Shown: positions 8,756 to 23,357 of the stretch, piece by piece
How positions within the stretch are numbered: the first letter of the stretch is position 1
Layout: every line of letters starts with the position of its first letter
IMG/VR virus record: IMGVR_UViG_2545824717_000010
Length of the DNA stretch: 23,357 bases
From: a virus
Lineage: Duplodnaviria; Heunggongvirae; Uroviricota; Caudoviricetes
Direction: 5' to 3' (one strand)
Translations under genes and position numbers: made by a program
Notes under the pieces: model-generated
What the model saw: the letters and a program-made list of their open reading frames with translations, nothing else
Database searches by the model: none
What the model was told of the DNA's origin: nothing

Positions 8756-9601
8756 ATGACAAAGCCTTCTCATTTTAGAACCCCTCTTCGTTATCCGGGA
8801 GGTAAGGCAAAATTCTTGCCACATATTGAACAAATACTCCGCAACAATGATCTCATTGGTGGATGTTATGCTGAACCTTATGCAGGTGGAGCCGGTGTAG
8901 CATTAGGTTTGCTCCTTAACGGTCTTGTTGAAAATATCTTCATAAATGATATTGATCCTGCCCTTTATTCTTTTTGGTTTGCAGTGGTTAATCATAACGA
9001 TCTGTTATGTGAAATGATTGATGAAGTTCCTGTGACTATTGAAAATTGGCATACTCAAAAGGAGATACTCCTAAACAATGATAAATATAGTATGCTTGAA
9101 GTCGCATTATCTACTTTCTTTTTAAATAGAACAAACCGTTCAGGAATACTTAAGGCTGGCGTTATTGGAGGGAAAGAACAAAAAGGACCATGGAAGTTAG
9201 ATGCAAGATTCAACAAAAAAGAGTTAATTAAAAGGATTGAACTAATTGGTGCATATAAGGAGAAAATTTACGTATCGAATTTTGATGCTGTAGATTTTCT
9301 GCTACACCAAAAAGCATTGCTACCCAAAAATAGTCTAATATATCTTGATCCACCTTATTATGTTAAAGGAGCAGAGTTATATAGAAATTTTTATAAACAT
9401 GATGATCATGTAAAAATCGCTAATACACTACGGGAAATTCAACTACCTTGGGTTGTGTCTTATGACAATGTGCCTGAAATAAAAAGCATATATCATGAAT
9501 TCAATATGACTGATTATACGCTTAATTATACTGCACAAGATAAGAAAAAAGGTCTAGAAATTATCATTTATAATCATGGTATAAAAATCCCTGACATTTA
9601 A
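8756..9601 (+). CDS. N6-adenine DNA methyltransferase, D12/Dam family (alpha class)
   Basis: 281 aa; N-terminal RYPGGK motif; SAM-binding motif I EPYAGGAGV (about 8870..8896); catalytic motif IV DPPY (9347..9358); markedly AT-rich versus flanks. Target sequence cannot be inferred. Confidence 0.85.
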   Translation: MTKPSHFRTPLRYPGGKAKFLPHIEQILRNNDLIGGCYAEPYAGGAGVALGLLLNGLVENIFINDIDPALYSFWFAVVNHNDLLCEMIDEVPVTIENWHTQKEILLNNDKYSMLEVALSTFFLNRTNRSGILKAGVIGGKEQKGPWKLDARFNKKELIKRIELIGAYKEKIYVSNFDAVDFLLHQKALLPKNSLIYLDPPYYVKGAELYRNFYKHDDHVKIANTLREIQLPWVVSYDNVPEIKSIYHEFNMTDYTLNYTAQDKKKGLEIIIYNHGIKIPDI

Positions 9602-9618
9602 ATTTAAGGATGATATAG

Positions 9619-11316
9619 ATGATTAAAGAAATTAGTTTTAAAAAATTTAAGAAACTGATAGATATTGACTTCTCATTCAATGAAGACATCAATATAATAT
9701 CAGGAACCAATGGGACATGTAAGACAACATTGCTTCATTTAATTAGCAATGGTTTCCAAATGCCACCATCTCGATCACAAAATTATTCAAATAGTAATTG
9801 TGTTAGAGTTATAAAATCTATAAACAAAATAGCCAACCCCAAAATGGAAGCAATTGTTAGGGAATCAAAAAATTACACCGATCCGGCAGAGGGAACAAAA
9901 GGTGTGTTATTTTCTATTAACTATTTGGATCATAGCACACTAGACTTCAGAAAGCACAACTCAAAAAATCCAGACGAAGCGCAACGGTATGCTATCAAAC
10001 CAGTATACCCACGCGGAAAAGAAAAACAATCACTTCCAGCTAAACCAGTTTTATATCTTGGATTATCGCGACTATTCCCAATTGGTGAAACTAAAGACGA
10101 CGCCCTTACAAAAATTCCGTTAAACCTACCAGAAGAGTATGTTGGTTATATATCGAAAATATATAATGAACTTTTGGGAATTAATATTATAAATATAGAA
10201 TCAAACAATATCGGTGATTTTAAAGCTGGCCCATTATTTGATACCGATAACCCAGCAATTGATTCTAATACCATATCATCCGGGGAAGACAATATATTCA
10301 TTATAATCAAGGCATTAGTTAGCCTTAGGTATTATTTTGAATCACTTATTCAATCCACTGATCAAAAAGAAAGCATTCTGTTAATAGATGAATTTGATGC
10401 CACTTTACATCCTTCTTTACAGATAAGATTATTAGATAAAATTTATCAATACGCAAAAGATTATAAGATTCAAGTATTTTTCACAACGCACAGTCTGACA
10501 TTGCTAGAGTATGCTTTTCATAAAAAATACCATGTTGTCTATCTAATTAACAATATTACAAAGGCTCTGCTTTTGGATAATCCTGATATATTAAAAATAA
10601 CAATGTATCTGAAAACACAAACAAAGGATGAGATATACACAAGGAACAAGATACCAGTTTTCACGGAAGATGAAGAAGCTCGCTTTTTATTTAATGAAAT
10701 ACTTGGTTATTGGATAAGCAAATATCCAAATTTTGCTATAGTTAGTAATTCATTTCACTTAATTGATTGTTTCATTGGTGCAGACAATTTAAAAACTATT
10801 TTTAATGATTCTCATCTTAAGGAAACCTCGTTAAAATCAATTTGTATTCTTGATGGAGATCACAGCCCTGAGGATCAGAGAGGAATTATATCACTGCCGG
10901 GTGAAAAAGCTCCAGAACAATTGATATTTGAGCATTGTGAGCACCTTTATAATACCGACGACTCTTCCTTCTGGGAAAATCAGGATATAATTAACAATGG
11001 TTTTTCGAAAGAGTTATACTTACTCAAGATACGTCCTCAATTACAATCAATTGAAACTGAAATTCAGAAAAGAAAAGACAACCATGAGTCTACATCCGGT
11101 TTAAGAAGAAGATTAAATAAGAAAATATTCAATCAGCATATTGAATTCTTTAGAATGATTACAAGAAACTGGTTAGACAAACCAGAAAATCAGAAATCTC
11201 TCCAGTATTTTTACAATGGATTACGATCCTTATTCTACCGGGTTACACCAACAAACGGCATTGACAGAAAAATTTGGGATTTTGACTATAACAAAATCAT
11301 TAAAGAGGATAAATAA
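9619..11316 (+). CDS. ABC-type ATPase fused to a TOPRIM-like nuclease domain (OLD/PARIS-like architecture)
   Basis: 565 aa; Walker A GTNGTCKTT (about 9703..9729); Walker B LLIDEFD (about 10381..10400); TTHS motif; C-terminal region with conserved Glu (VFTEDEEA, about 10654..10680) and DxD (ILDGDH, about 10846..10860) consistent with TOPRIM; starts 17 bp after the MTase stop; very AT-rich. Confidence 0.75.
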   Translation: MIKEISFKKFKKLIDIDFSFNEDINIISGTNGTCKTTLLHLISNGFQMPPSRSQNYSNSNCVRVIKSINKIANPKMEAIVRESKNYTDPAEGTKGVLFSINYLDHSTLDFRKHNSKNPDEAQRYAIKPVYPRGKEKQSLPAKPVLYLGLSRLFPIGETKDDALTKIPLNLPEEYVGYISKIYNELLGINIINIESNNIGDFKAGPLFDTDNPAIDSNTISSGEDNIFIIIKALVSLRYYFESLIQSTDQKESILLIDEFDATLHPSLQIRLLDKIYQYAKDYKIQVFFTTHSLTLLEYAFHKKYHVVYLINNITKALLLDNPDILKITMYLKTQTKDEIYTRNKIPVFTEDEEARFLFNEILGYWISKYPNFAIVSNSFHLIDCFIGADNLKTIFNDSHLKETSLKSICILDGDHSPEDQRGIISLPGEKAPEQLIFEHCEHLYNTDDSSFWENQDIINNGFSKELYLLKIRPQLQSIETEIQKRKDNHESTSGLRRRLNKKIFNQHIEFFRMITRNWLDKPENQKSLQYFYNGLRSLFYRVTPTNGIDRKIWDFDYNKIIKEDK

Positions 11317-11553
11317 TGTATTCTAATAGGATATAAACATCAAAGCTATATTTTTTACACATATCAAGAGTAAAAAATAATTTAACTTTTACATAACGAC
11401 CTCTTTTACAAATAAGTAGAAAAGGTCGTTATAACTCTCATCTCCATAGCATGTAATTTTCTTTGCATATTTTCACATAACAGTCAGGGATGTATTTATA
11501 AGCAACGTCGTATACATAGGCTCAATTTTTCTATAAATAAGCACTCCGTTCGG

Positions 11554-11583
11554 TTTGCACAATAGTGCACAAATTTGCACAAT
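11554..11583. repeat. Three tandem 10-bp direct repeats (TTTGCACAAT / AGTGCACAAA / TTTGCACAAT)
   Basis: Read directly; units 1 and 3 identical; one-helical-turn periodicity; located at the AT-rich to GC-rich transition on the right side of the cargo island. Confidence 0.6.
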
Positions 11584-11952
11584 TTTTTTGAACGACTTTT
11601 GCCCTTCCGGCCCGCATGGCGGCTGGATCCGTCAAGGATCCGTGCGTGCACAAAAAAACGCGCTTTTTCTGCGCGCAGGTGACGGGGGAACAGCCCGCGT
11701 TTCAGGGGGTAAATAGCATTCCCTGAACGATGTCGCAGAGACACAACAGAATGGCCATATTTCTCACGCTGAGCATGAAAAAGGCGTGAGGGCTTTTGAT
11801 TTGATGGGGTGAAAGGTAAGGCCGTCAAAATCGCACTGAGGCAGCGAGAACATACAGTCAACGCGGTGGAATTGCGTAAGAGTCTGACCGTCGATGGTGG
11901 CGATAAACTGGAAGGCGTCGTGAAATTATCTGATTGATACAGGAGCTGGAGA

Positions 11953-11981
11953 GCCGGGGCATAAATTTTTTATGCCCCGGC
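11953..11981. repeat. Perfect 13-bp inverted repeat GCCGGGGCATAAA-TTT-TTTATGCCCCGGC
   Basis: Read directly; no U-tract on either side, so not a canonical intrinsic terminator; about 100 bp upstream of the 12081 gene. Confidence 0.6.
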
Positions 11982-12080
11982 GAAGCAGCAGACAAGCGAA
12001 GCGCGTCAGCGATACGGCACCTTGCCGACCATACTTCATAAGTGCAAAATACGAGCAAAGAAATCAATGGAGGCTGTCTT

Positions 12081-12605
12081 ATGGTCATTAATTACAAGCA
12101 GTTAAGAGAAAAACGGGAGCAGGTAAAGGAGAGCTTTCGCCGCAATGAAGATCTGACCCCGCTTGTACGCCTTGCCCAGGGCATTGTTGATGCTTATGAA
12201 ATCTCGCTGGAGCTGCCATCACAGACCTGGACAGATAGCGACGGTAATCGCCAGCATTACGTTTCATGCGGACTGGAAGCAGCCGAAGGATTTCGCAGAA
12301 TGCCTTTATCCCAGATCCCTGCCGCTACCCCCAAAGCACGGGGCAGCAATGATGAGCGAAAACTGACTTTTAGTATTGAAACGGTGGTTGACGACACACC
12401 TGGCGAAGTCGCGTTCGTACACACTCCTGTTTCGATCGCAATGTATAACGATGAAATACAGGTTCGCGTTAATAATAATATCGTGCCACTTAAAGAAGGT
12501 AATTCACCCTACACCACCGTTTGTGAAGCCATTCAATATTACGTTCTCTCTGAAATTGATAATCTCAAGCCTGACGGCACCCAGAAAATGGTTCAACTCT
12601 GGTAA
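12081..12605 (+). CDS. Hypothetical protein (unassigned cargo gene between packaging region and portal gene)
   Basis: 174 aa from ATG at 12081 with RBS GGAGG 7 nt upstream (the track ORF starts at 12042 in the same frame); followed by an intrinsic terminator; no family recognised. Confidence 0.55.
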   Translation: MVINYKQLREKREQVKESFRRNEDLTPLVRLAQGIVDAYEISLELPSQTWTDSDGNRQHYVSCGLEAAEGFRRMPLSQIPAATPKARGSNDERKLTFSIETVVDDTPGEVAFVHTPVSIAMYNDEIQVRVNNNIVPLKEGNSPYTTVCEAIQYYVLSEIDNLKPDGTQKMVQLW

Positions 12606-12611
12606 AAAGGA

Positions 12612-12636
12612 CAGCCCCATCACGGGGCTGTTTTTT
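12612..12636. terminator. Bidirectional intrinsic terminator between convergent genes
   Basis: 7-bp GC stem CAGCCCC/GGGGCTG with 5-nt loop followed by TTTTTT on plus strand and by TTTTT on the minus strand (complement of AAAAA at 12604..12608); overlaps the Q stop codon. Confidence 0.7.
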
Positions 12637-13666
12637 CATCAAGAAGAGCATAAGAGTTAAAACGGATCACCTCTTCGCCAAGCCAGTCATTGATGTGCTT
12701 CATAGCCTCCATGACGGGCATCAGCTCGTTAATTGCGTAAACCCGCGCTGCCTTCTCCACATCGCCAAACGCACTTTTTTCGCCCGGCATCGCCCCCATC
12801 AGTTGCGGCGGAACGCGGTGCGCAGCCAGCACATCATCACGGGATGCCGCCTTAACATTCATGAATTCATCTTTTGCGGTGATCTGCTGGAACGGCAAAA
12901 TTTGCACCCCCTCTTTGCCCCCGTTGGGCGCATGAATGAGCACGTTTTTAAACGCACCACCACCACGTGCCCCCTGTAGCGTTTCTTTCAGGGAGTCCAT
13001 GCTTTCGCGGTTTACCTGCGCTGCACCGATGTAGATGATGCACCCGGCGTGGGATCCGTTGTCGTAGTACAGTTTTCTGAACATGTCCGCCGAATGAGAA
13101 AGGCTGGCCGAGAGTAATGCGCCAAGATATTCCGGCATGCCGTAGATTTCCTGGTTAATATCCGGATTCATCAGGTGGCACACTTTGCCAGGACGAAACT
13201 GAAACGCGTCCTTGCCATCCTGCACATACCACCATGATTCAAGATCGCTTCCGCGTCGCATGTATTTCGCCAGGGCGTGCCGTAATTTAAGCGGTTCGCC
13301 GAGCATATTGCTTCGAAGCTCAAGGAATGCGTTACCGAACACAAACCAGTCCAGCGCCAGCGCCGAGAAATCCTGCCGGGAAAGCAGCGGGTGCGGGATG
13401 TAGCAACCGAGTAATACATTGCGCTTAAAGTAAAGCGCAGACTGATGCCAGGACGTTTGCCGGGCAGCTCTTGCCAGACCGTACCAGTCCACCGGGGTTT
13501 CATACCACCGCCCGTTATCAGCACAGTACATATTGTCCAGCAGGTCATGCCCGGTCAGGCGATAAGGACCATCAAATGTGAATGCACTGAGCGATGATTC
13601 TTTCCTGAGCGCATCAGCGAGATCAATGCGTGAACTCATGCGCACTTTTTTATTTTTTCTGCTCAT
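12620..13666 (-). CDS. Q: Portal protein, P2 gpQ homolog
   Basis: 348 aa, similar length to P2 Q; position adjacent to the terminase gene; recalled sequence similarity. Confidence 0.85.
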   Translation of the reverse strand: MSRKNKKVRMSSRIDLADALRKESSLSAFTFDGPYRLTGHDLLDNMYCADNGRWYETPVDWYGLARAARQTSWHQSALYFKRNVLLGCYIPHPLLSRQDFSALALDWFVFGNAFLELRSNMLGEPLKLRHALAKYMRRGSDLESWWYVQDGKDAFQFRPGKVCHLMNPDINQEIYGMPEYLGALLSASLSHSADMFRKLYYDNGSHAGCIIYIGAAQVNRESMDSLKETLQGARGGGAFKNVLIHAPNGGKEGVQILPFQQITAKDEFMNVKAASRDDVLAAHRVPPQLMGAMPGEKSAFGDVEKAARVYAINELMPVMEAMKHINDWLGEEVIRFNSYALLDEKTAP

Positions 13667-15417
13667 CAGAACTCCATAACTGTGAAACGCTCGTTTTCTC
13701 CTTCGCCGCCAATTGGTTCGTTAATGACAGCAAGCATGGTTGCCCACGCAAGGTCGCCGTGGCTGATCCCCCTCGCGCGGTCCGTTTCGTAAGTGATAAA
13801 GCCGCCCGGTGTTTTCACCTTACGCACGGCGTTAAAGGCTGCGACCAGCTCGCGTTCGGCGCGATCGTATTCCCACCGCCCGGCACGCATTATTTGCAGC
13901 ATTTTCAGTACCAGCGACCGTTTTGATGACAGCGTGAAGGTGTACGGAATAGCAGCAGGGAAAAACCGTTTCACTATCTGATAAACAGCCTCCCCGTTCC
14001 CGCCCGTCACATCAATGCCGATGTGTTCCACGTTGTAGCGACACGTGAACTCTTCAATGACTCTGGCCTGTTCTTCAAACTCCAGCCCCTGAACGCGTCG
14101 CGTCTCCACCGTTCGAAAACGGCCACCAGGAACAGACGGAGGAACCACCACGGACACAGCGCCGCTGTCGCCGTTGCCACTGCTGCCGTTTGCGTCATAC
14201 CCAATCCATACCGGACGATTCCCCATCGGGCGGGGAGCAAAAGGTTTCCAGTCTTTCCAGTCGTCGTATCCGTCAACGCCGCAGCCAATCAGGATATTCA
14301 GGTTAAATGCCGATTCCCCTTCGCGGACAAACTCACACATGTAGAGATTGAGGAACTCGTCTTCGGTGTTTTCATCGCGGATTTCGTCAATATCGGTGTG
14401 TTTCCAGCCGTGATTAACCACATCTTCCAGCGTGACAATCTGCCGCCATGTCCGGTCAGGGCAGATAAGTCCGTTATGCAGCGTTTTCCAGTCCACAGAA
14501 AAACGCTGGCGTTTATGCGAGGCCTTTTTCTCGTTCCAGCGGTCGCCGTTCCAGTAGGCGTATGCCTCGTGCGTTTCGGTGGATGGCGTGGAGAAGTAGG
14601 TGCGCCGCAGTCCGCTGAGGGTTGCCATAGCGCCAGCCACCTTGCGCAGTTCAGCAAAGCGACTGACCCAGAAAAATTCATCAAAATAAAAATTGCCCGT
14701 ATAGGACTGTGCCGACGCAGCAGAAGTGCCGAGAAAATGCAGCTCTGCGCCGTTGGAGAGGATGATTTTATCGCCCCCTTTCAGCTCCACATCAACTTCA
14801 GCCGCGGCCTTCTGAATAATGCTTTTAAACTGGAACGCCTGACGACGCGACGCAGACAAAAAAATCTGGTTACGCTGGTAAGGTTGCGCCACATCGTCAC
14901 GCAGCGCCATCAGCAGCGCTTCCTGTGCAAAATACCAGGTCGCCCCAATCTGTCGGGATTTCAGGATCATCCTGTTACGTATCCCGGCTTCCCTGCAAAG
15001 GGTCAGGGAGTCAAACCAGCCCCGCTGATGCCACTCCAGCCTGCTGATGATTTTTTCCCGCAGTGCGGCAATCTGTTCCGGCGTGAAATGATTTTTGAGT
15101 TTTTTCGCCCGGCCTTTCTTTCCTGCGGCCATCACATCCGGCTGGCCATCATGCAGCTTTTTAAGCTGCCGGGTCAGCAGGTCTATTTCCTTAAAGTCAC
15201 CGCCTGTTTTATTCTGTTTTTCAGTAAGCTGGATGAGGCGCGCATCAATGGACTGCGTGACACGCTGCACGGGTGGCGTTTCATCCCACTGGTCGCGTTT
15301 TTTCCACGCATAAATCGTGTTCGGGTTTATTCCCATCAGACGTGATATTTCTGCGGGCGGATAACCCTGCCAGTAAAGTTGCCGCGCACGCTGGCGCACA
15401 AAAGCGTCCTGAATCAT
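13666..15417 (-). CDS. P: Terminase large (ATPase) subunit, P2 gpP homolog
   Basis: 583 aa; N-terminal MIQDAFVRQRARQLYWQGYPPAEISRLMGI matches P2 P as recalled; divergent from the O operon. Confidence 0.9.
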   Translation of the reverse strand: MIQDAFVRQRARQLYWQGYPPAEISRLMGINPNTIYAWKKRDQWDETPPVQRVTQSIDARLIQLTEKQNKTGGDFKEIDLLTRQLKKLHDGQPDVMAAGKKGRAKKLKNHFTPEQIAALREKIISRLEWHQRGWFDSLTLCREAGIRNRMILKSRQIGATWYFAQEALLMALRDDVAQPYQRNQIFLSASRRQAFQFKSIIQKAAAEVDVELKGGDKIILSNGAELHFLGTSAASAQSYTGNFYFDEFFWVSRFAELRKVAGAMATLSGLRRTYFSTPSTETHEAYAYWNGDRWNEKKASHKRQRFSVDWKTLHNGLICPDRTWRQIVTLEDVVNHGWKHTDIDEIRDENTEDEFLNLYMCEFVREGESAFNLNILIGCGVDGYDDWKDWKPFAPRPMGNRPVWIGYDANGSSGNGDSGAVSVVVPPSVPGGRFRTVETRRVQGLEFEEQARVIEEFTCRYNVEHIGIDVTGGNGEAVYQIVKRFFPAAIPYTFTLSSKRSLVLKMLQIMRAGRWEYDRAERELVAAFNAVRKVKTPGGFITYETDRARGISHGDLAWATMLAVINEPIGGEGENERFTVMEF

Positions 15418-15571
15418 TGCTCCCCCTGAGTAATTACAGGAAGATTACCCGCGCGCGAAACCGTTCTCCTTAACCCCCTGTTCTGGCCGTTTTCTTACAA
15501 CAAAAGCCCTTTGTATCAGCCTGTTACGCTTTGCCATCATGACTGAAGAACCAGTCAGAGGGGCAAAAACT
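15418..15571. promoter_or_regulatory. Divergent late promoter region (expected Ogr-dependent promoters for the P-Q and O-N-M-L operons)
   Basis: Intergenic region between divergent P and O; contains an imperfect dyad TGTT-N16-AACA; exact activator site not confirmed. Confidence 0.35.
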
Positions 15572-16408
15572 ATGGCTAATGAAAAAAAGACATCCCGCAA
15601 AAAGTTTCGCGTGGCTGTCTCCGGATCAACTGTTGATGGCCGCGAAATCAGTCCGGTACATCTGCGTGAAGCCGCCGAGAACTTCAACCCGGATGTTTAC
15701 GCTGCCCGCGTGAACGTTGAGCACTATCTCTCGCCATGCCCGTCAAGCGAATTTTCCGCAATGGGCGATGTCACCGCGCTGAGTACGGAAGATATTACGG
15801 AAGGCCCGCTGGCCGGACGTACTGCGCTGTATGCAGAAATCGAACCGACCGAGCGCATGAAGCAGCTTGTCGCTGACGGCAAGAAAATCTATTCCAGTAT
15901 CGAACTGCACCCGCAGTTCTCCGTTAACGGGCGCGCCTATCTGGTCGGGCTGGCGATGACCGACACCCCGGCAAGCCTGGGCACTGAGCGCCTGAAATTC
16001 ACGGCACAGCAACGTCAGGCGGTGATGACGTTCAACAGTGTCCAGGGTGAAGCACCGCTTATCTCCGAAGCCATCGAGTCTGAAATCATCGAAATGGCAG
16101 AACAACGCCAGGAAGAAGGCACCCAGTGGTTTAACCGCGTAATGGGGATTATTGGCCGTGGCCGCAAAGCGGATGACGCCAGTTTCTCCCGCATTCAGGA
16201 AGCGGTGGAAGGCGTCGCAACGTCACAGGCCGACATTATCGACCGTTTTAATGCACTGGAAACCCGCCATCAGCAGGACAGCCAGAAAATCACTTCACTG
16301 ACCACAGAGCTGGCAGCACTGAAGGAAAAACTGCGCACGCAGGACGGCGATCCGCAGAACCGGTTCACCGCAACGGGCGCAGCCTCCGACCAGCTGGCTG
16401 ACTTCTGA
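15572..16408 (+). CDS. O: Capsid scaffolding protein, P2 gpO homolog
   Basis: Start at ATG 15572 (MANEKK..., RBS GAGGGG upstream) by analogy with P2 O N-terminus; 278 aa. Confidence 0.85.
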   Translation: MANEKKTSRKKFRVAVSGSTVDGREISPVHLREAAENFNPDVYAARVNVEHYLSPCPSSEFSAMGDVTALSTEDITEGPLAGRTALYAEIEPTERMKQLVADGKKIYSSIELHPQFSVNGRAYLVGLAMTDTPASLGTERLKFTAQQRQAVMTFNSVQGEAPLISEAIESEIIEMAEQRQEEGTQWFNRVMGIIGRGRKADDASFSRIQEAVEGVATSQADIIDRFNALETRHQQDSQKITSLTTELAALKEKLRTQDGDPQNRFTATGAASDQLADF

Positions 16409-16431
16409 TAAGACAAAGGAGCAAATTTTTT

Positions 16432-17484
16432 ATGAATCTGGTGATGTCAGATATTACCCGCAACAAGCTGGGTTGCTATATGGCGCAGCAGGCGTCGCTT
16501 AACAATATCCCGGTTTCCGCACTGGTATCGCGATTTACCGTGGAACCCTCGGTACAGCAGCGTTTTGAAAACGCCTCAAAGGAAAGCACCGAATTTACAA
16601 AAAGAATTAACGTGATCGGCGTGACCGACCAGAAAGGCGAAAAAATCCTCCTGGACACCACCGGGCCAATTGCACGCACGAATACCAGTTATGACGGAAC
16701 AAAACGCCGTAACCCGAATAACGTGGTTGATCTGAAAAACCGCAAATACCAGTGCGAACAGGTGAACTACGACACGTTTATTTCGTATCCGCAGCTTGAT
16801 GCCTGGTCGGCACACCCTGATTTTCAGTCCCGCATCAGCGCACAGATTGCCCGACAGGTGGCGCTTGACCGCATCATGATCGGTTTCAACGGCACGTCTC
16901 ACGCGGATGAGTCCAACTTCAGCACCAACAAGCTGCTTCAGGACGTTAACGTGGGATGGCTGGAGCACATCAGAACCGACGCCAGCGAACGCGTTATGAA
17001 TGACGTGACGCTGACCTCCCGCAACATGGACAACACCGTGGCGCACGCGGGTAAGTATGCGAACGCTGATGCACTGGTACAGGACGCGCGTTCATCCCTG
17101 CTGGATGAATGGCACAAGGAAGCTGACGACCTCGTGGTGATTATGGGGCGCAATCTGTTTAACTCGCTGCGTCTGCCCGTGCTGAACAGCATCAGCGGCC
17201 AGAATCCCAATGCGGAATTACTTGCCGGGCAGCTCATCCTGTCATCGCGCACCATTGGCGGGCTGGGCGTGTTCCTTGCGCCATTCTTCCCGGATGCAAC
17301 GATGCTGATCACCTCGTTCAACAACCTGTCGATTTACTGGCAGAAAGGTTCAATGCGTCGTCTGATGAAAGACGAACCGGAATACAACCGCATCGCCACC
17401 TACCAGTCCATCAATGACGCTTATGTCGTTGAAGACTATGGCAAGTGCGCGATGGTCACTGGCCTGAAGTTCGCCGACAGCTAA
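16432..17484 (+). CDS. N: Major capsid protein, P2 gpN homolog
   Basis: 350 aa; RBS AAGGAG; sequence resembles P2 N (RFTVEPSV, IMIGFNGT, LSIY motifs as recalled). Confidence 0.9.
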   Translation: MNLVMSDITRNKLGCYMAQQASLNNIPVSALVSRFTVEPSVQQRFENASKESTEFTKRINVIGVTDQKGEKILLDTTGPIARTNTSYDGTKRRNPNNVVDLKNRKYQCEQVNYDTFISYPQLDAWSAHPDFQSRISAQIARQVALDRIMIGFNGTSHADESNFSTNKLLQDVNVGWLEHIRTDASERVMNDVTLTSRNMDNTVAHAGKYANADALVQDARSSLLDEWHKEADDLVVIMGRNLFNSLRLPVLNSISGQNPNAELLAGQLILSSRTIGGLGVFLAPFFPDATMLITSFNNLSIYWQKGSMRRLMKDEPEYNRIATYQSINDAYVVEDYGKCAMVTGLKFADS

Positions 17485-17529
17485 TCAACTCACGGCGGGC
17501 ATCATGCCCGCCTGTAACGGAGAGAAAAA

Positions 17530-18330
17530 ATGATTACTCCTGCACAGCAACACTGGCAGAACGTGATGGCACAGCGCGCAGGCCGGGCGAATGAAGGCGT
17601 GGACCACGCCGCGCGTACCGCGCATGAAGAGGTGCTGTATCGTCTGCGTCTGGCACAGGCCCGGCTTAAGGGCGTACAGGCCAGAAGCGCGAAAGCCGCC
17701 ATCAAAAAAGAGTTGTTGCCGGACTTTTCCGGCTGGATTGAAGGAACGCTGGAGGCTGACGGCGGGCAGCAGGATGAAGTGATTGCCACGCTGATGGTGT
17801 GGGCAATTGACTGCGGCGATCTTCCGCTGGCGCTGCGTATTGGTACGTATGTGGTCCGTCACAACCTCATTATGCCGGATAACTTTGGACGTACTGCCGC
17901 CACGGTACTGACCGAAGAAATCTGTAATCCGGTACTGACGCAGGCCGGGACGGATGCCGACGCGGATTTGTCCGCCTTTATCGAACCACTGGACACCCTC
18001 CGGGAGATTGTCACCGACCAGGACATGCCGGACGAAGTGCGCGCCAAATTATGCAAGGCGTGCGCCTTTGCCCGTCGTGGCCTGACCGATGCAGACAACA
18101 TGGCCTTATCACTGAAGCTGCTGCGCGAAGCGATGCACCTGAACCCGAACGCAGGTGTGAAACGCGAGATTGCAACCCTTTCCCGCGCCCTGAAAAAAGC
18201 CGATTCCGCAGCCGCACCAGAAGATGCCAGCACACCGCAGGCGCAGGACGAAAGCAGCAAAAGTAAAAAGACAACGCGGAAGCCTGCAACACGAAAAACC
18301 ACCGCGACGCAGAAGGCGAAGCGCGGTTAA
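17530..18330 (+). CDS. M: Terminase small (endonuclease) subunit, P2 gpM homolog
   Basis: 266 aa; position after N; basic C-terminal tail. Confidence 0.8.
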   Translation: MITPAQQHWQNVMAQRAGRANEGVDHAARTAHEEVLYRLRLAQARLKGVQARSAKAAIKKELLPDFSGWIEGTLEADGGQQDEVIATLMVWAIDCGDLPLALRIGTYVVRHNLIMPDNFGRTAATVLTEEICNPVLTQAGTDADADLSAFIEPLDTLREIVTDQDMPDEVRAKLCKACAFARRGLTDADNMALSLKLLREAMHLNPNAGVKREIATLSRALKKADSAAAPEDASTPQAQDESSKSKKTTRKPATRKTTATQKAKRG

Positions 18331-18431
18331 CGACTGACCCCGTCAGCGGGCGGCGTGCGCGGTGTTCCGGTTTGACTCCGTGACCGTTTACACCGCGCAC
18401 CCACCGCCCGATTTTTTCAGGAGTGAACCCC

Positions 18432-18926
18432 ATGAGTATGGTTGCCAGAACCAACCCCGGCCCCGCAGAGGACGACATCACCGATACCGATGATGGTGAT
18501 ACCCGTATTTCAGCGGGCGCATTCTGGCCGGATATTGTGCTGCGTGAGCTGCGTCTGGCGATACGACTGCCTAGCCGTGTGACCACCTCCCGCCTGCTGC
18601 ATACCGCCACCGGGGCCGTGGCACACGTTACCCGCGAGCTGGAAGCGTGGCAGAAGGAACAGCAGGCGGCTGGCCATCAGACGCTGGCCGATGTTCCGGC
18701 ACCCGTAATTAACGGAGAAAGCGTCAATCTCTGGCACTGGCGCAATGCTGTTTATACCGCCACGCGCGCCCTGATTCTGGAGCGTTACCGCGATGCGGAC
18801 ACAACGGACAAGGGCGACCGCCGGGCGGACGCACTGGATATACAGACATCGGATTTGTGGCGTGATGTGAGCTGGGCCATCTCTGACATTCTGTGTCGCC
18901 CGCGAATCTTTGCGGAGTTGTGCTGA
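18432..18926 (+). CDS. L: Head completion/stabilisation protein, P2 gpL homolog
   Basis: ATG at 18432 with RBS CAGGAG 8 nt upstream (the track ORF starts at GTG 18423); about 164 aa; position after M. Confidence 0.8.
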   Translation: MSMVARTNPGPAEDDITDTDDGDTRISAGAFWPDIVLRELRLAIRLPSRVTTSRLLHTATGAVAHVTRELEAWQKEQQAAGHQTLADVPAPVINGESVNLWHWRNAVYTATRALILERYRDADTTDKGDRRADALDIQTSDLWRDVSWAISDILCRPRIFAELC

Positions 18927-19126
18927 TGAAAGTGAAGGCACTGGAAGGCGACACCGTGGATTCGCTCTGTTTCCGGTACTACGGCACGACGCAGGGCGTC
19001 ACCGAAAAGGTGCTGGATGCCAACCCCGGACTCTGTCAGCAGGTATTTCTGGACGCCGGGCAGGAAGTTGAGATGCCGGAGCCGGAGAAGAAGAAACGAG
19101 AAATGATTCAGTTGTGGGGGGAGTAG
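18926..19126 (+). CDS. X: Tail protein X homolog (small LysM-like protein)
   Basis: 66 aa from ATG 18926 overlapping the L stop (TGATG); similar size to P2 X. Confidence 0.75.
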   Translation: MKVKALEGDTVDSLCFRYYGTTQGVTEKVLDANPGLCQQVFLDAGQEVEMPEPEKKKREMIQLWGE

Positions 19127-19128
19127 CA

Positions 19129-19452
19129 GTGAGCACCATTCAAACAGGGATCACAGAGCAGGTTATTGCGTGGCTCTTTGACCACCTGCCAACGGTGTAT
19201 GCAGTAGGCGCGGCGGTCAGCATTTCCGCGCTGATGAGTCTTTATGACGGACGAACACTGGTTCAGACCGTAACGGGATCGCTGGCGTGCGGCGTTCTTG
19301 CCATGGCCGTGGCCGGGTCGTTGCGCTTCTTCGGGGTTCCTGAAGATGCCGTGACGTTTATCGGCGCATCAATCGGTTTTATGGGTGCAGAGAAAGCACG
19401 CGACAAGGTTATTGCGGCCTTTAATCGCAGGGTGAAGGAGAAGGACGAATGA
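19129..19452 (+). CDS. Y: Holin (class I-like, multiple TM segments)
   Basis: GTG start at 19129 preceded by GGGGGAG (alternative GTG at 19114); hydrophobic segments and charged C-terminus; immediately upstream of the endolysin with ATGA overlap. Confidence 0.7.
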   Translation: MSTIQTGITEQVIAWLFDHLPTVYAVGAAVSISALMSLYDGRTLVQTVTGSLACGVLAMAVAGSLRFFGVPEDAVTFIGASIGFMGAEKARDKVIAAFNRRVKEKDE

Positions 19453-19841
19453 GCAACACATTTAAATTCAGCAGCCGGAGCGAAAAGAATTTGCAGGGCG
19501 TAAATCCTGATCTGGTGAAAGTGACCCGACGGGCACTGGAAATCTCGGAAGTGGATTTTGGTATCACCGAAGGGTTGCGCAGCCGTTACCGCCAGAAGCA
19601 ACTGGTGGCCACGGGTAAGAGCCAGACCATGAACAGCCGCCACCTTACGGGGCATGCCGTGGATGTTGTGGCTTATATCGGCAGCCAGGTGTCATGGGAA
19701 TGGCCGCTGTACGAAAAAATCGCAGCAGCATTCAGACAGGCCAGCCGGGAACTGAATATTCCGGTGGAATGGGGCGGCGACTGGAAGACCCTGAAAGACG
19801 GACCGCATTTTCAGTTACCACACGGAGCCTATCCGGCATGA
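19449..19841 (+). CDS. Endolysin, M15-family peptidase (L-alanyl-D-glutamate peptidase type)
   Basis: 130 aa; motifs SRHLTGHAVD and DGPHFQ match the zinc-binding H..D...H pattern of VanY/T5-endolysin-like peptidases as recalled. Confidence 0.8.
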   Translation: MSNTFKFSSRSEKNLQGVNPDLVKVTRRALEISEVDFGITEGLRSRYRQKQLVATGKSQTMNSRHLTGHAVDVVAYIGSQVSWEWPLYEKIAAAFRQASRELNIPVEWGGDWKTLKDGPHFQLPHGAYPA

Positions 19842-20245
19842 AGCTCTGGCCCACGCTTGGCGTCGCTTTCCTTCTGATTGCCGGATGGGGAACATCCATG
19901 CGTCTGTCGTGGTCGCTGGGCCGGGAGAACGCCAGAAACGAAGCACAGGCCAGCACCCTGAAAAGTACCGTCGACACCCTGAATATCATCAGCACCGGGG
20001 TACAGGATATGCAGCAGGTGCTGGCGCAACTCCGCGTGGAAAATCAACAGCGAAATCAGGACGGAGAGGCCAGACGTGAACAGCTACGCAACGATATTGC
20101 AAAAGATGAATGCGCCCACGCTTTGCCTGACGCTCGTTTTACTGACAGGTTGCGCAGGCACGCAGAACGCGCCACTGTCAGCGCCGTCAGTCCGGCTTAT
20201 ACCGCAGACGCTGACCATACCGGTAACGCCTCCCCCCTTCCCTGA
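19838..20245 (+). CDS. lysB: i-spanin (Rz/LysB-like)
   Basis: ATG 19838 overlaps the endolysin stop; N-terminal TM anchor (LWPTLGVAFLLIAGWG) then coiled-coil-like periplasmic domain. Confidence 0.7.
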   Translation: MKLWPTLGVAFLLIAGWGTSMRLSWSLGRENARNEAQASTLKSTVDTLNIISTGVQDMQQVLAQLRVENQQRNQDGEARREQLRNDIAKDECAHALPDARFTDRLRRHAERATVSAVSPAYTADADHTGNASPLP

Positions 20246-20396
20246 CACTCCCACATGGGGAAATCTCGGTATATGGGGCGACCGCCTTCTGGATGCACTG
20301 GAAACCTGTAACGCGGATAAACGGGCCATTGAATTACTGGAACAGCGCAGGCTGCAACGACTGAACAACGAGGACAACAACCATGCTGAAAACTGA
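20106..20396 (+). CDS. lysC: o-spanin lipoprotein (Rz1/LysC-like), overlapping the i-spanin gene in another frame
   Basis: ATG 20106; signal peptide with lipobox LLTGC; Pro-rich mature region; overlapping-frame arrangement typical of two-component spanins. Confidence 0.7.
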   Translation: MNAPTLCLTLVLLTGCAGTQNAPLSAPSVRLIPQTLTIPVTPPPFPDTPTWGNLGIWGDRLLDALETCNADKRAIELLEQRRLQRLNNEDNNHAEN

Positions 20397-20613
20397 TTCC
20401 CTGCGTGAAGCCATGACCCGTTCATGCCGATGGTGTCAGGCTAACCCGGAAAAATTCACCATCTTCGTGGAGAGCGGCAACATTGAAACGACAGGAGAAA
20501 CCCCATCGTTTGTTTACCGCTATCAGATGGTGATGTTTGTCATGGATTACGCCGGGGAGCTGGATGACCTCACGCTGCCGCTGCTGGCGTGGTTATACAC
20601 CTCAAAGATGTAG
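20383..20613 (+). pseudogene. R: Truncated tail completion protein R (N-terminal about 64 codons, then junction-derived sequence)
   Basis: N-terminus MLKTDSLREAM resembles P2 R start as recalled; ORF ends after 76 codons where the sequence becomes the reverse complement of an FI fragment. Confidence 0.55.
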
Positions 20614-21458
20614 GCGTTCGTTTCCGGTGTGCGGTTGCCCCAGAAGCGGAACCCGTTACGACGAATAATGGTCGTGATTTCTTTGTTGTTAAGGCTGTTG
20701 GCATCGCTGTCTTCGGCCTGCAACGACCAGAACACATGCCGGGACATCCCCAGCACATTTTTAACCGGAACGTTGGACAGTGATTTGTGCCAGCCCTGCT
20801 CATGGTCAATGTACGCACGAAGGCCGCACGCATAAGCAGGCGCGGGGAACGTTTCGTTTTTGCCACTTTTCGGGTTGTAGGCGATGAAGTCCGGCCATAA
20901 GAGCATCACCTCACGTTCGTTGAATTTCTGGCGGTAGGTAATTGCCTCTGCCATCGTGTTACAGCCATGACATGAGGCATACACAAACGCGCGCAGTTTA
21001 CCCGCAATCACGCACAGGGATTTTGTCACCGCCTCCGTGTCCAGCTCCGGCGCGGCCAGAATACGCGGACGGTATCCGATGCTTTCATCCTGCTCTGCAA
21101 CAAGCAGCGCATACATCCCCGTATAGCTGCCGTCAGATTCAGAACCACCGATAACCAGTTGATCCTGCGTCTTTCCGTTTTCTTCTTTGTGTTCAGCCAC
21201 GCGAACGACGATCACCTTTGTGCTCACCTGGTCTGCGATGGCCTTAAGCGCACGATAAAGCGTCCCCGTTGTCCCGCATTTTCCCAGCACGTCATTGACG
21301 CGGGTCAGCAGTGTGGGCTTGTTCAGCGGGAACAGCTTCGCGTCCGCATCATCCGCCGTTGCCACGATACCGATAACGCTGGAATCAACATCGTTAATCG
21401 CTGTTACCAGGTCGGTACTTTCCGTAACACGGGCACCATGAAAACGAGTTTCACTCAT
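20547..21458 (-). pseudogene. FI: N-terminal fragment (about 290 codons) of tail sheath protein FI, in inverted orientation
   Basis: Translation matches the recalled P2 FI N-terminal region (FPLNKPTLLT, GWHKSLSNV, TLIRRNGFRFWGNRT-like blocks) but is on the minus strand and ends in junction sequence; FII, E, T, U and S, V, W, J, I, H, G are absent. Confidence 0.7.
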
Positions 21459-21615
21459 AGCTTCAGCCCCTTGTATCCGTTAAATGATTCGGCAACAATC
21501 ATCACCCACCACGCGCGTAATCTCACCCCTGCGCCGTTCTCCCGCCACGGCGACAACAAAAAGCAGTAACCCCCTCCGCACGCACATGCGACCATGCCGC
21601 ACAGGGAGGGAGCAG

Positions 21616-22725
21616 ATGACCGACACCACCATGCAATTGCTCAGTCAGGGCACAGACCCCGTAAAAATGCCGGATTTTGATATTCTCGCGGAGGGTAAAA
21701 CGCTGTCAGGCGTGGCAGAGCGCCTGATGAGCCTGTCACTGACCGACAACCGGGGATTTGACGCGGACCAGCTCACCATCACGCTGGATGATGCGGATGG
21801 TCAGTTGCAGCTACCGCCACGGGGCGCGCGCCTGACGGTTCTCATTGGCTGGAAAGGAGAACCGCTGACAGAAAAAGGCACTTACATTGTTGATGAAATC
21901 GCTCACGAAGGACCGCCGGACAGGCTGACTGTTTCAGCCAGAAGCGCAGATTTTCGGGATGAATTTAACGTTAAACGTGAGGTGTCCTGGCATGATGTGA
22001 CCGTTGAGCGTGTGGTATCCGCCATCGCTCATCGGTATGGTCTGAAACCGCAAATCAGCGAAATGCTGATGGATATCGAAATCGACCACGCCGACCAGAC
22101 CGAAGAAAGCGACATGTCCTTCCTTACGCGCATGGCGGAAATGCTGGGCGCAATCACCACGGTAAAAAGCGGCAATCTGTTATTCATCATGCCAGGTGGT
22201 GGCGTGAACGCACAGGGCCAGCCGTTGCCCTCGTTCGCCATTACACGCAGCAGCGGCGATCGCCATCAGTTCCGCATTGCTGACCGCGAGGCGTATACGG
22301 GGGTACGCGCCTACTGGCTTGATCTTAATTACGGGAAAAAGAAAAAAGTCAGCGTGAAACGCCGTAAACCGCCAAAACCCAAAAAGGAGAAAAGCAGCAG
22401 CCGTGAAGGTGATTATATGGAAGGCGCGGAAGGCAATGTGTTTGTGTTACGCAAGACTTATCAGAACGAGCAGGCAGCAAGACGCGCAGCGGCGGCAAAG
22501 TGGCAGCAACTACAACGCGGAGCCGCATCATTCTCCATCACGCTGGCGCGTGGACGTGCAGAACTCTACCCCGAAATGCATGGCACGGTAACAGGATTTA
22601 AAAGCGAGATTGATAATAAGGACTGGATCATTGCAAAAGCCGAGCACACCATTGATAACAGCGGTTTTACCACGCAGCTTGAGCTTGAGGCAAAAATCCC
22701 GGAATGGATAGCGGAAACAGAGTGA
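21616..22725 (+). CDS. D: Tail protein D homolog
   Basis: ATG 21616 with strong RBS GGGAGGG; about 369 aa; immediately upstream of ogr as in P2. Confidence 0.8.
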   Translation: MTDTTMQLLSQGTDPVKMPDFDILAEGKTLSGVAERLMSLSLTDNRGFDADQLTITLDDADGQLQLPPRGARLTVLIGWKGEPLTEKGTYIVDEIAHEGPPDRLTVSARSADFRDEFNVKREVSWHDVTVERVVSAIAHRYGLKPQISEMLMDIEIDHADQTEESDMSFLTRMAEMLGAITTVKSGNLLFIMPGGGVNAQGQPLPSFAITRSSGDRHQFRIADREAYTGVRAYWLDLNYGKKKKVSVKRRKPPKPKKEKSSSREGDYMEGAEGNVFVLRKTYQNEQAARRAAAAKWQQLQRGAASFSITLARGRAELYPEMHGTVTGFKSEIDNKDWIIAKAEHTIDNSGFTTQLELEAKIPEWIAETE

Positions 22726-22765
22726 GCAACTTAGAATAGGCAGCACCACGTTAAGGGAGGTCGCT

Positions 22766-23026
22766 ATGTTCCGTTGTCCGCTTTGTGGCGCATCTGCCCG
22801 TATCCGCACCAGTCGTCCGGAAAATGATTCAAACACCGTGCGGCAAAAGTATTACCAGTGTAACAATCTGGAATGCGGCGTATGCTTCTCAACACTGGAA
22901 GCTTTCCATAAATTCACATCAAAACACGCCTCCGGCGTTCACTCTTCAGAAGGTATCCCGTGGCATGAGCTGCCAGCTTCACACAGGGGAAACAATCAGA
23001 TGAGTTTGCCTTTATCTCAGAATTAA
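22766..23026 (+). CDS. ogr: Ogr/Delta-family zinc-finger late transcription activator
   Basis: 86 aa; N-terminus MFRCPLCG; Cys-x2-Cys ... Cys-x4-Cys zinc-binding pattern (C4, C7, C32, C37); RBS AGGGAGG. Confidence 0.85.
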   Translation: MFRCPLCGASARIRTSRPENDSNTVRQKYYQCNNLECGVCFSTLEAFHKFTSKHASGVHSSEGIPWHELPASHRGNNQMSLPLSQN

Positions 23027-23216
23027 CAGGCAGAATTGCCGGAGTAACAAAAAAGCGATAGATTACGCGCGGGTGCCTTTCGGCTGATGGTCGGAGGGAA
23101 TACCCGAAGGCCAGATGTGGAAAGGCCCCGGAAAACATTTCTGTTTAACCGAGGCCCTGACCATCTAACCTTAGCAAGTGATAGGTTAGCGCCTCCCTGA
23201 AAAAGGAGCAAGCGCT

Positions 23217-23357
23217 ATGTCGCAAAAATCGCTTATGGCCATCACGTTCTGCGTGACGGCAATCCTCATCATCTGGATGCTGCACGGTTCGCTGTGTGAA
23301 ATACGGATGAGCTTCTGGGGAGCGGAGTTTGCGGCGTTCTTACAGTGTAAGCAGTAA
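23217..23357 (+). CDS. Hok/Gef-family type I toxin-like small membrane protein
   Basis: 46 aa MSQKSLMAITFCVTAILIIWMLHGSLCEIRMSFWGAEFAAFLQCKQ: N-terminal TM helix, SLCEIR motif and G..E.AAF motif characteristic of Hok/Gef peptides; RBS AGGAG 8 nt upstream; stop codon at the last 3 nt of the window. Confidence 0.7.
   Translation: MSQKSLMAITFCVTAILIIWMLHGSLCEIRMSFWGAEFAAFLQCKQ

Follow-up and report, generated by a model that had tools for sequence, protein, structure and literature searches.

The tail region of the window (the whole 23,357-nt stretch that was analysed, IMG/VR record IMGVR_UViG_2545824717_000010) has very probably been shaped by one illegitimate deletion of ∼11–13 kb at a TAT microhomology in a P88-like prophage, an event that would explain the entire structure. 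The element is best classified as a defective derivative, and not a viable member, of the P88-like E. coli prophages (Xuanwuvirus, Peduoviridae; P2 family).

Comparison of window positions 20000–22000 with a phage collection by megablast returned P88 and its Xuanwuvirus relatives, not P2, and the match to the P88 group ran uninterrupted over 20591–22000, which comprises the FI fragment, the intergenic region and D. Six colinear blocks are shared with P88 by blastn, with 97.3–97.9% identity in the late region; colinearity spans portal to R on one side of the scar and FI to hok on the other, at 97–98% nucleotide identity, and the head, lysis, D and ogr genes of P88 are all found full length in the window. 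P88 differs in its integrase (39% identity), in its immunity region, which contains a different C repressor, and in the cargo of the A–cos hotspot, where it has ParM/partition genes and the window a methyltransferase and an ATPase. The P2-type Pfam domains detected in the window (PF04860, PF06056/PF03237/PF17289, PF05929, PF05125, PF05944, PF05926, PF05489, PF05954, PF04606, and PF05840) cover portal, GpP-like terminase, GPO scaffold, P2 capsid, GpM, GpL, GpX, GpD, Ogr/Delta, and the GpA replication protein.

In the late region, window positions 12645–20596 correspond to P88 11379–19329 (97.9% identity by blastn) and positions 20591–23357 to P88 32308–35068 (97.3% identity), both blocks agreeing with P88 in strand and order. 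The size of the block missing between them (Table 1) varies with the reference because the relatives differ in fibre content; the nearest relatives are 96–100% identical and the deleted size of 10.7–13.0 kb is therefore an estimate. Fifteen genes are lost outright, namely S, V, W, J, I, H, G, two inverted alternative fibre genes, the invertase, U, T, E′, E, and FII; R has also lost its 3′ half and FI its C-terminal domain. Homology to P88 R continues to position 20596 (blastn and three-way alignment); in the three-way alignment the left parental sequence (P88 ..19329) matches through 20596 and the right parental sequence (P88 32311..) from 20594, and an identical junction, with TAT only, was obtained when strain 51489 served as the reference. 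Mapping of the breakpoints against a complete P2-like genome had been suggested by an earlier, sequence-only reading of this DNA, which placed the break at about 20578; blastn and the three-way alignment with P88 move it to 20594–20596, and a single deletion with a TAT junction accounts for it.

Pfam, PHROG and alignment data agree with that reading that a rearrangement scar joins an N-terminal part of R, the tail completion/terminator gene, to a fragment of the sheath gene FI on the opposite strand. Its start codons for FI (21458, minus strand; ORF with PF22671 and PF04984) and D (21616, plus strand; PF05954, phrog_52 E 5e-165) were recovered unchanged, as was the position of ogr after D (22766–23026; PF04606). 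Both genes are truncated as described, although R retains 71 native codons rather than about 64 and FI exactly 288 rather than roughly 290. The R′ ORF also matches PHROG 65 (tail terminator). FI′ is 97–99% identical to the sheaths of P88 and strain 51489 over residues 1–288, and the sheath C-terminal domain PF17482 (P88 residues 281–375) is entirely missing from it. The R′ and FI′ ORFs are convergent and overlap over 20547–20613; a promoter and terminator scan around the scar gave nothing better than shuffled sequence, with no convincing terminator between the two. For the R′ stub, the tail-terminator PHROG is outscored by phrog_36427 (367 positions, function unknown), whose positions 1–73 it matches at E 1e-37; this family may have been built from R-fusion or mis-called proteins.

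Table 1. Features of the deletion scar and of the retained late genes (window coordinates unless P88 is named)
Feature	Position	Strand	Description
Missing block, against P88	P88 19330-32313		12,984 bp
Missing block, against strain 51489			10,694 bp
Missing block, against AR_0013			11,405 bp
Tail gene X	18926..19126	+	PF05489; 96-97% identical to relatives; upstream of scar
Lysis cassette (holin, M15 endolysin, LysB, LysC)	19114..20396	+	Pfam/PHROG; full length against P88; adjoins R′
R′ remnant	20383..20595	+	native codons 1-71 of R, tail completion/terminator (full-length R in P88, 155 aa)
R′ ORF, whole	20383-20613	+	76 aa; PF06891 profile positions 1-73/133, E 5e-20
R′ ORF, foreign tail	20596..20613	+	5 codons (YTSKM) and stop, antisense of FI′
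Deletion junction	20594..20596	.	TAT microhomology common to both parental sequences
FI′ ORF, foreign tail	20547..20594	-	15 codons and stop, antisense of R′
FI′ remnant	20595..21458	-	native codons 1-288 (of 394) of tail sheath; start 21458
FI′ ORF, whole	20547-21458	-	303 aa; PF22671 and PF04984 only; phrog_23 E 1e-85
Divergent FI-D intergenic region	21459..21615	.	native; contiguous with FI and D in P88; not a breakpoint
D (tail/late control D)	21616..22725	+	PF05954, phrog_52; 98.6-99.7% identical over 369 aa
ogr, late-gene activator	22766..23026	+	PF04606; 100% identical to strain 51489 copy
Hok/Gef family toxin gene	23217-23357		prophage right end, as in P88 and relatives

R and FI are the only genes cut, all others being full length in comparison with P88 and/or strain 51489: int, the repressor-side genes, A, portal, large terminase, scaffold, capsid, small terminase, L, X, holin, endolysin, LysB, LysC, D, ogr, and hok. 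The sequence-only reading was thus right that the head, packaging, lysis, replication and integration genes had been kept; its statement that every tail gene had been removed holds for the tail module but not for X and D, which are intact and are annotated as essential tail genes in P2. Set against the complete virion gene set of the P88 group, the window lacks 15 tail genes and has R and FI truncated; set against intact relatives, it has lost essential genes and shows truncated remnants at a single junction, as a prophage made defective by deletion does. The att sites lie outside the window, a search for the 19-nt cohesive end of P2 found it conserved in neither P88 nor the window, and a strict Ogr-type motif (TGT-N12-ACA) is absent from the P/O and FI/D intergenic regions. 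A GTTCT-N12-ACAACAAAAG motif is found upstream of both O (15478–15506) and D (21534–21562) and represents a candidate late-promoter activator site. The excised genome would amount to ∼24.5 kb versus 34–38 kb in intact relatives, or ∼65–72% of the wild-type length.

The orientation of FI is central to how the scar is interpreted. P2 shares with the element its gene families and the order Q P O N M L X, lysis, R, and D-ogr, and in P2 the genes FI FII E E′ T U D form a single rightward operon, whereas in the P88 lineage FI to U are inverted and D stands separately. According to its annotation, P88 carries R, S, V, W, J, I, H and G on the plus strand, followed by an invertible fibre segment with a DNA invertase, and U, T, E′, E, tube and sheath on the minus strand, where 157 nt separate the sheath start from the start of D on the plus strand; this layout recurs in the intact prophages of E. 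coli strains 51489 and AR_0013. P88 can be induced with mitomycin and forms plaques (PMC5285337), and since it is viable with FI on the minus and D on the plus strand this arrangement is functional. Furthermore, the segment at window 20595–22000 (the 5′ part of FI, the intergenic region and the 5′ part of D) runs without interruption in 1,382 of the 5,426 complete E. coli genomes, and the FI/D junction, shared by so many genomes, is native. The window has this layout, with FI′ starting at 21458 on the minus strand, D at 21616 on the plus strand, and the first 288 codons of the leftward operon surviving. It had been proposed from sequence alone that an ancestor with the order R to G, FI FII E T U D in one orientation underwent an inversion with breakpoints in R and FI and then a deletion reaching the start of D. 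That order is correct for P2, against which alone the FI fragment does look inverted, but it is not that of the element's lineage, in which FI FII E T U are not on the strand of R to G. The element is 97–98% identical to P88 and colinear with it on both sides of the scar, its FI–D intergenic region is uninterrupted, so that no breakpoint lies at the start of D, and the FI(−)/D(+) arrangement is native both in P88, a viable phage, and in roughly one in four complete E. coli genomes; moreover, two events would be required where a single deletion between two same-strand colinear P88 blocks is enough. Inversion followed by deletion, which must be considered exceedingly unlikely, was ruled out on the ground that FI to U are natively inverted in the P88 lineage, and the apparent inversion arises because a P88-type prophage was judged against the P2 gene map.

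The proposed single deletion would have run from R codon 72 to FI codon 288 and would have left the native divergent FI/D promoter region, D and ogr untouched. FI, FII, E, E′, T and U are natively read leftward in this lineage, towards the tail-fibre/invertase region, and it is because of this native direction that a plain deletion puts the two remnants, R′ and FI′, in a tail-to-tail orientation on different strands. Most likely the deletion arose by illegitimate recombination, through slippage or end-joining at the microhomology; a multi-step history with the same product, such as successive deletions, is formally possible. Comparisons with P88 and strain 51489 detected no repeats or homology at the breakpoints beyond TAT, and there is no IS element at the junction. 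A different source of the deletion could be sought in the serine invertase (Gin/Cin/Hin family) that the phage itself encodes, which would have used pseudo-crossover sites within R and FI, given that the invertase and its two crossover sites are inside the deleted block and that the left parental sequence includes TTATCCGAAAAT, which we take to bear a loose resemblance to a crossover half-site (gix). A scan of P88 with the family consensus (TTNNCNNAAACCNNGGTTTNNGNNAA, ≤3 mismatches) detected only the native sites at 23826–23851 and 26897–26922, neither of them at a breakpoint, and ruled out recombination at invertase pseudo-sites; the crossover is, in addition, observed at the outer edge of the loose half-site and not at the central dinucleotide. 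Involvement of the invertase is accordingly rated very unlikely.

The two chimeric ORFs can be used as markers of the junction because both exist only if the exact junction exists. An exact copy of the junction-spanning 303-aa FI′ ORF was found on 42 public contigs (NCBI, ENA, Logan; protein collection), an outcome that answers the suggestion of the sequence-only reading to look for the scar in other strains, and the ORF is listed in 71 index blocks, two of which have contigs of >1 Mb (up to 4,872,115 bp); EFA5184168.1, EFD3133624.1, EGM8515305.1 and EIO7192978.1 are among the records behind the 42 contigs. The 76-aa R′ ORF is present in exact form on 27 contigs. Two carriers were fetched and are 99.98–99.99% identical to the window: GCA_049988575.1 (contig JAAPVD010000026.1) matches positions 10547–23357 and IMGVR_UViG_2547132277_000005 positions 17646–21731, each with one mismatch. 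At position 19336, in the holin gene, the window has G and both carriers have T, the sole difference in 12.8 kb, and from this SNP shared by the carriers it follows that the scar was inherited and that its carriers then diverged by point mutation. In GCA_049988575.1 the prophage occupies the chromosomal site of intact relatives, by the tRNA-Leu/Cys/Gly-pgsA region, with its attR side intact; in strain 51489 the 3′ end of tRNA-Leu forms part of the 121-nt repeat that makes up the att core. A search for the int-side flank of a carrier by means of the cargo methyltransferase returned only other prophages.

An artefact of assembly, whether a chimeric join or a collapsed contig present in no cell, would be conceivable in that several P2-family prophages are common in one E. 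coli genome (median of two matching places), which makes short-read mis-joins possible, that the IMG/VR carrier contig ends inside D, and that the junction is found in none of the 5,426 complete RefSeq E. coli genomes. Such an origin is nevertheless hardly credible and was ruled out by the recurrence of the chimeric ORFs (42 and 27 contigs), in independent sources and on megabase-scale contigs among them, and by the SNP that distinguishes carriers; the 3 bp shared by the parental sequences at the junction are also far too little for collapse in a k-mer graph. Beyond the complete genomes, the junction 34-mer and 24-mer gave no match in 185,579 species-representative genomes, and the 24-mer gave none in JGI metagenome contigs and a single contig in IMG/VR. 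Because the junction is so rare across genome collections, the data fit a recent event confined to one E. coli lineage, in which the scar appears to have been vertically inherited. This is routine prophage decay in one lineage.

As a consequence of the deletion the prophage would no longer be able to make tails. Because int, a cox-like gene, A, ogr and the head, terminase and lysis genes are intact, induction should still lead to excision, replication, Ogr-dependent late transcription, head assembly and lysis. An induced prophage would be expected to produce heads, perhaps filled, and to lyse the cell. The heads so released would lack tails and be non-infectious, except where a P2-family phage resident in the same cell provides the tails. 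As judged from P2/P4 packaging, a short genome in a P2-size head may be packaged inefficiently or unstably. The R′ and FI′ stubs are probably transcribed into each other, and the 76-aa and 303-aa chimeras may be expressed from these converging transcripts. A weaker possibility is that a sheath fragment devoid of its C-terminal domain would, if expressed, interfere with tail assembly in related phages.

The completeness of the head, packaging, lysis, replication, integration and regulatory genes, the persistence of the scar in many isolates, and the presence of defence-type cargo could be taken to mean that the element is an adapted tail-less one, kept through tail-borrowing spread in the manner of cf-PICIs, through a benefit to the host, or as a domesticated carrier of defence cargo. 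Precedents exist in the cf-PICIs, whose tail-less DNA-filled capsids can acquire foreign tails (10.1101/2025.02.11.637232), and in defective prophages that are packaged and transferred through inter-prophage interactions (PMC2669165). This interpretation is considered unlikely. R′ and FI′ persist as pseudogene stubs and X and D as orphan tail genes, the carriers are nearly identical (one SNP in 12.8 kb), and absence of the junction from all 5,426 complete genomes of E. coli and from 185,579 species-representative genomes, with one contig in IMG/VR, suits a recent clonal event better; a genome of ∼65–72% of wild-type length may also be poorly packaged into a P2-size head. Nothing here supports an adaptation to tail theft. 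That the element might act as an accidental, phage-derived analogue of a capsid-forming satellite, its own heads being completed by the tails of co-resident or co-infecting P2-family phages, is likewise improbable, and tail borrowing by its heads is speculative; if true, the element could still reach other strains together with its defence cargo, and the borrowed tail would determine its host range.

The cf-PICIs have their own capsid and packaging genes and no tail, and the gene content of the element after the deletion resembles theirs (10.1101/2025.02.11.637232). The element is, in contrast, a P2-family phage genome of ∼24 kb minus one block and not a PICI, and it is not free of tail genes, X, D and the R′ and FI′ stubs having been kept. 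A further likeness is found in defective prophages such as those of the O157 Sakai pool (PMC2669165), in which essential morphogenetic genes of an otherwise intact prophage have similarly been lost by internal deletion with gene stubs at the junction; like them, the element may still be inducible and packaged. It differs in having a single clean deletion without an IS element. Defective P2-like elements that retain defence genes have also been described (PMC13586616).

Several other loci were noted. The A-to-cos hotspot of the window (8756–11316) holds a two-gene cargo, comprising a D12 adenine methyltransferase that matches PADLOC PD-Lambda-5_B (E 8e-122) and a 565-aa AAA/SMC-type ATPase with PtuA/AriA/GajA-like matches; the exact methyltransferase has entries in 1,273 index blocks and belongs to P2-family prophages that are integrated at several different sites. 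Compared with P88 and with strains 51489 and AR_0013, the window has a 636-nt insert (12010–12644) at the portal stop codon, which carries an ORF (12042–12605; 174–187 aa) with no Pfam match; 396 complete E. coli genomes contain this insert too. Three minus-strand genes at 1008–2455, between int and the early region, encode a DUF2511/YebY-like protein, a 216-aa membrane/Flk_N-like protein and a 134-aa HTH repressor-like protein. Outside the element, an independent P2-family scar is found in CP050196.1 (14298–20772), where a 570-aa large terminase is joined directly to a 218-aa fragment of D, with loss of the head, lysis and tail genes, and where HxsD and two radical-SAM genes precede ogr. STL73951.1, from a 5.03-Mb E. 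coli contig of an NCTC genome, is a 285-aa sheath of P88 type to residue 265 that then diverges, and is an independent disruption of the same sheath gene in another strain.

Defective prophages formed by internal deletion are a well-known category, and the scar by itself opens no new biological question. As a natural tail-less mutant with its head genes retained, the element could be used for testing whether P2-family heads are completed by foreign tails in polylysogens. The main value of the analysis is a correction, in that a seeming inversion is a single deletion, and it provides a cleanly mapped route to a defective P2-family prophage, with a base-exact junction, a 3-bp microhomology and no IS element, that appears to have been inherited in a lineage.
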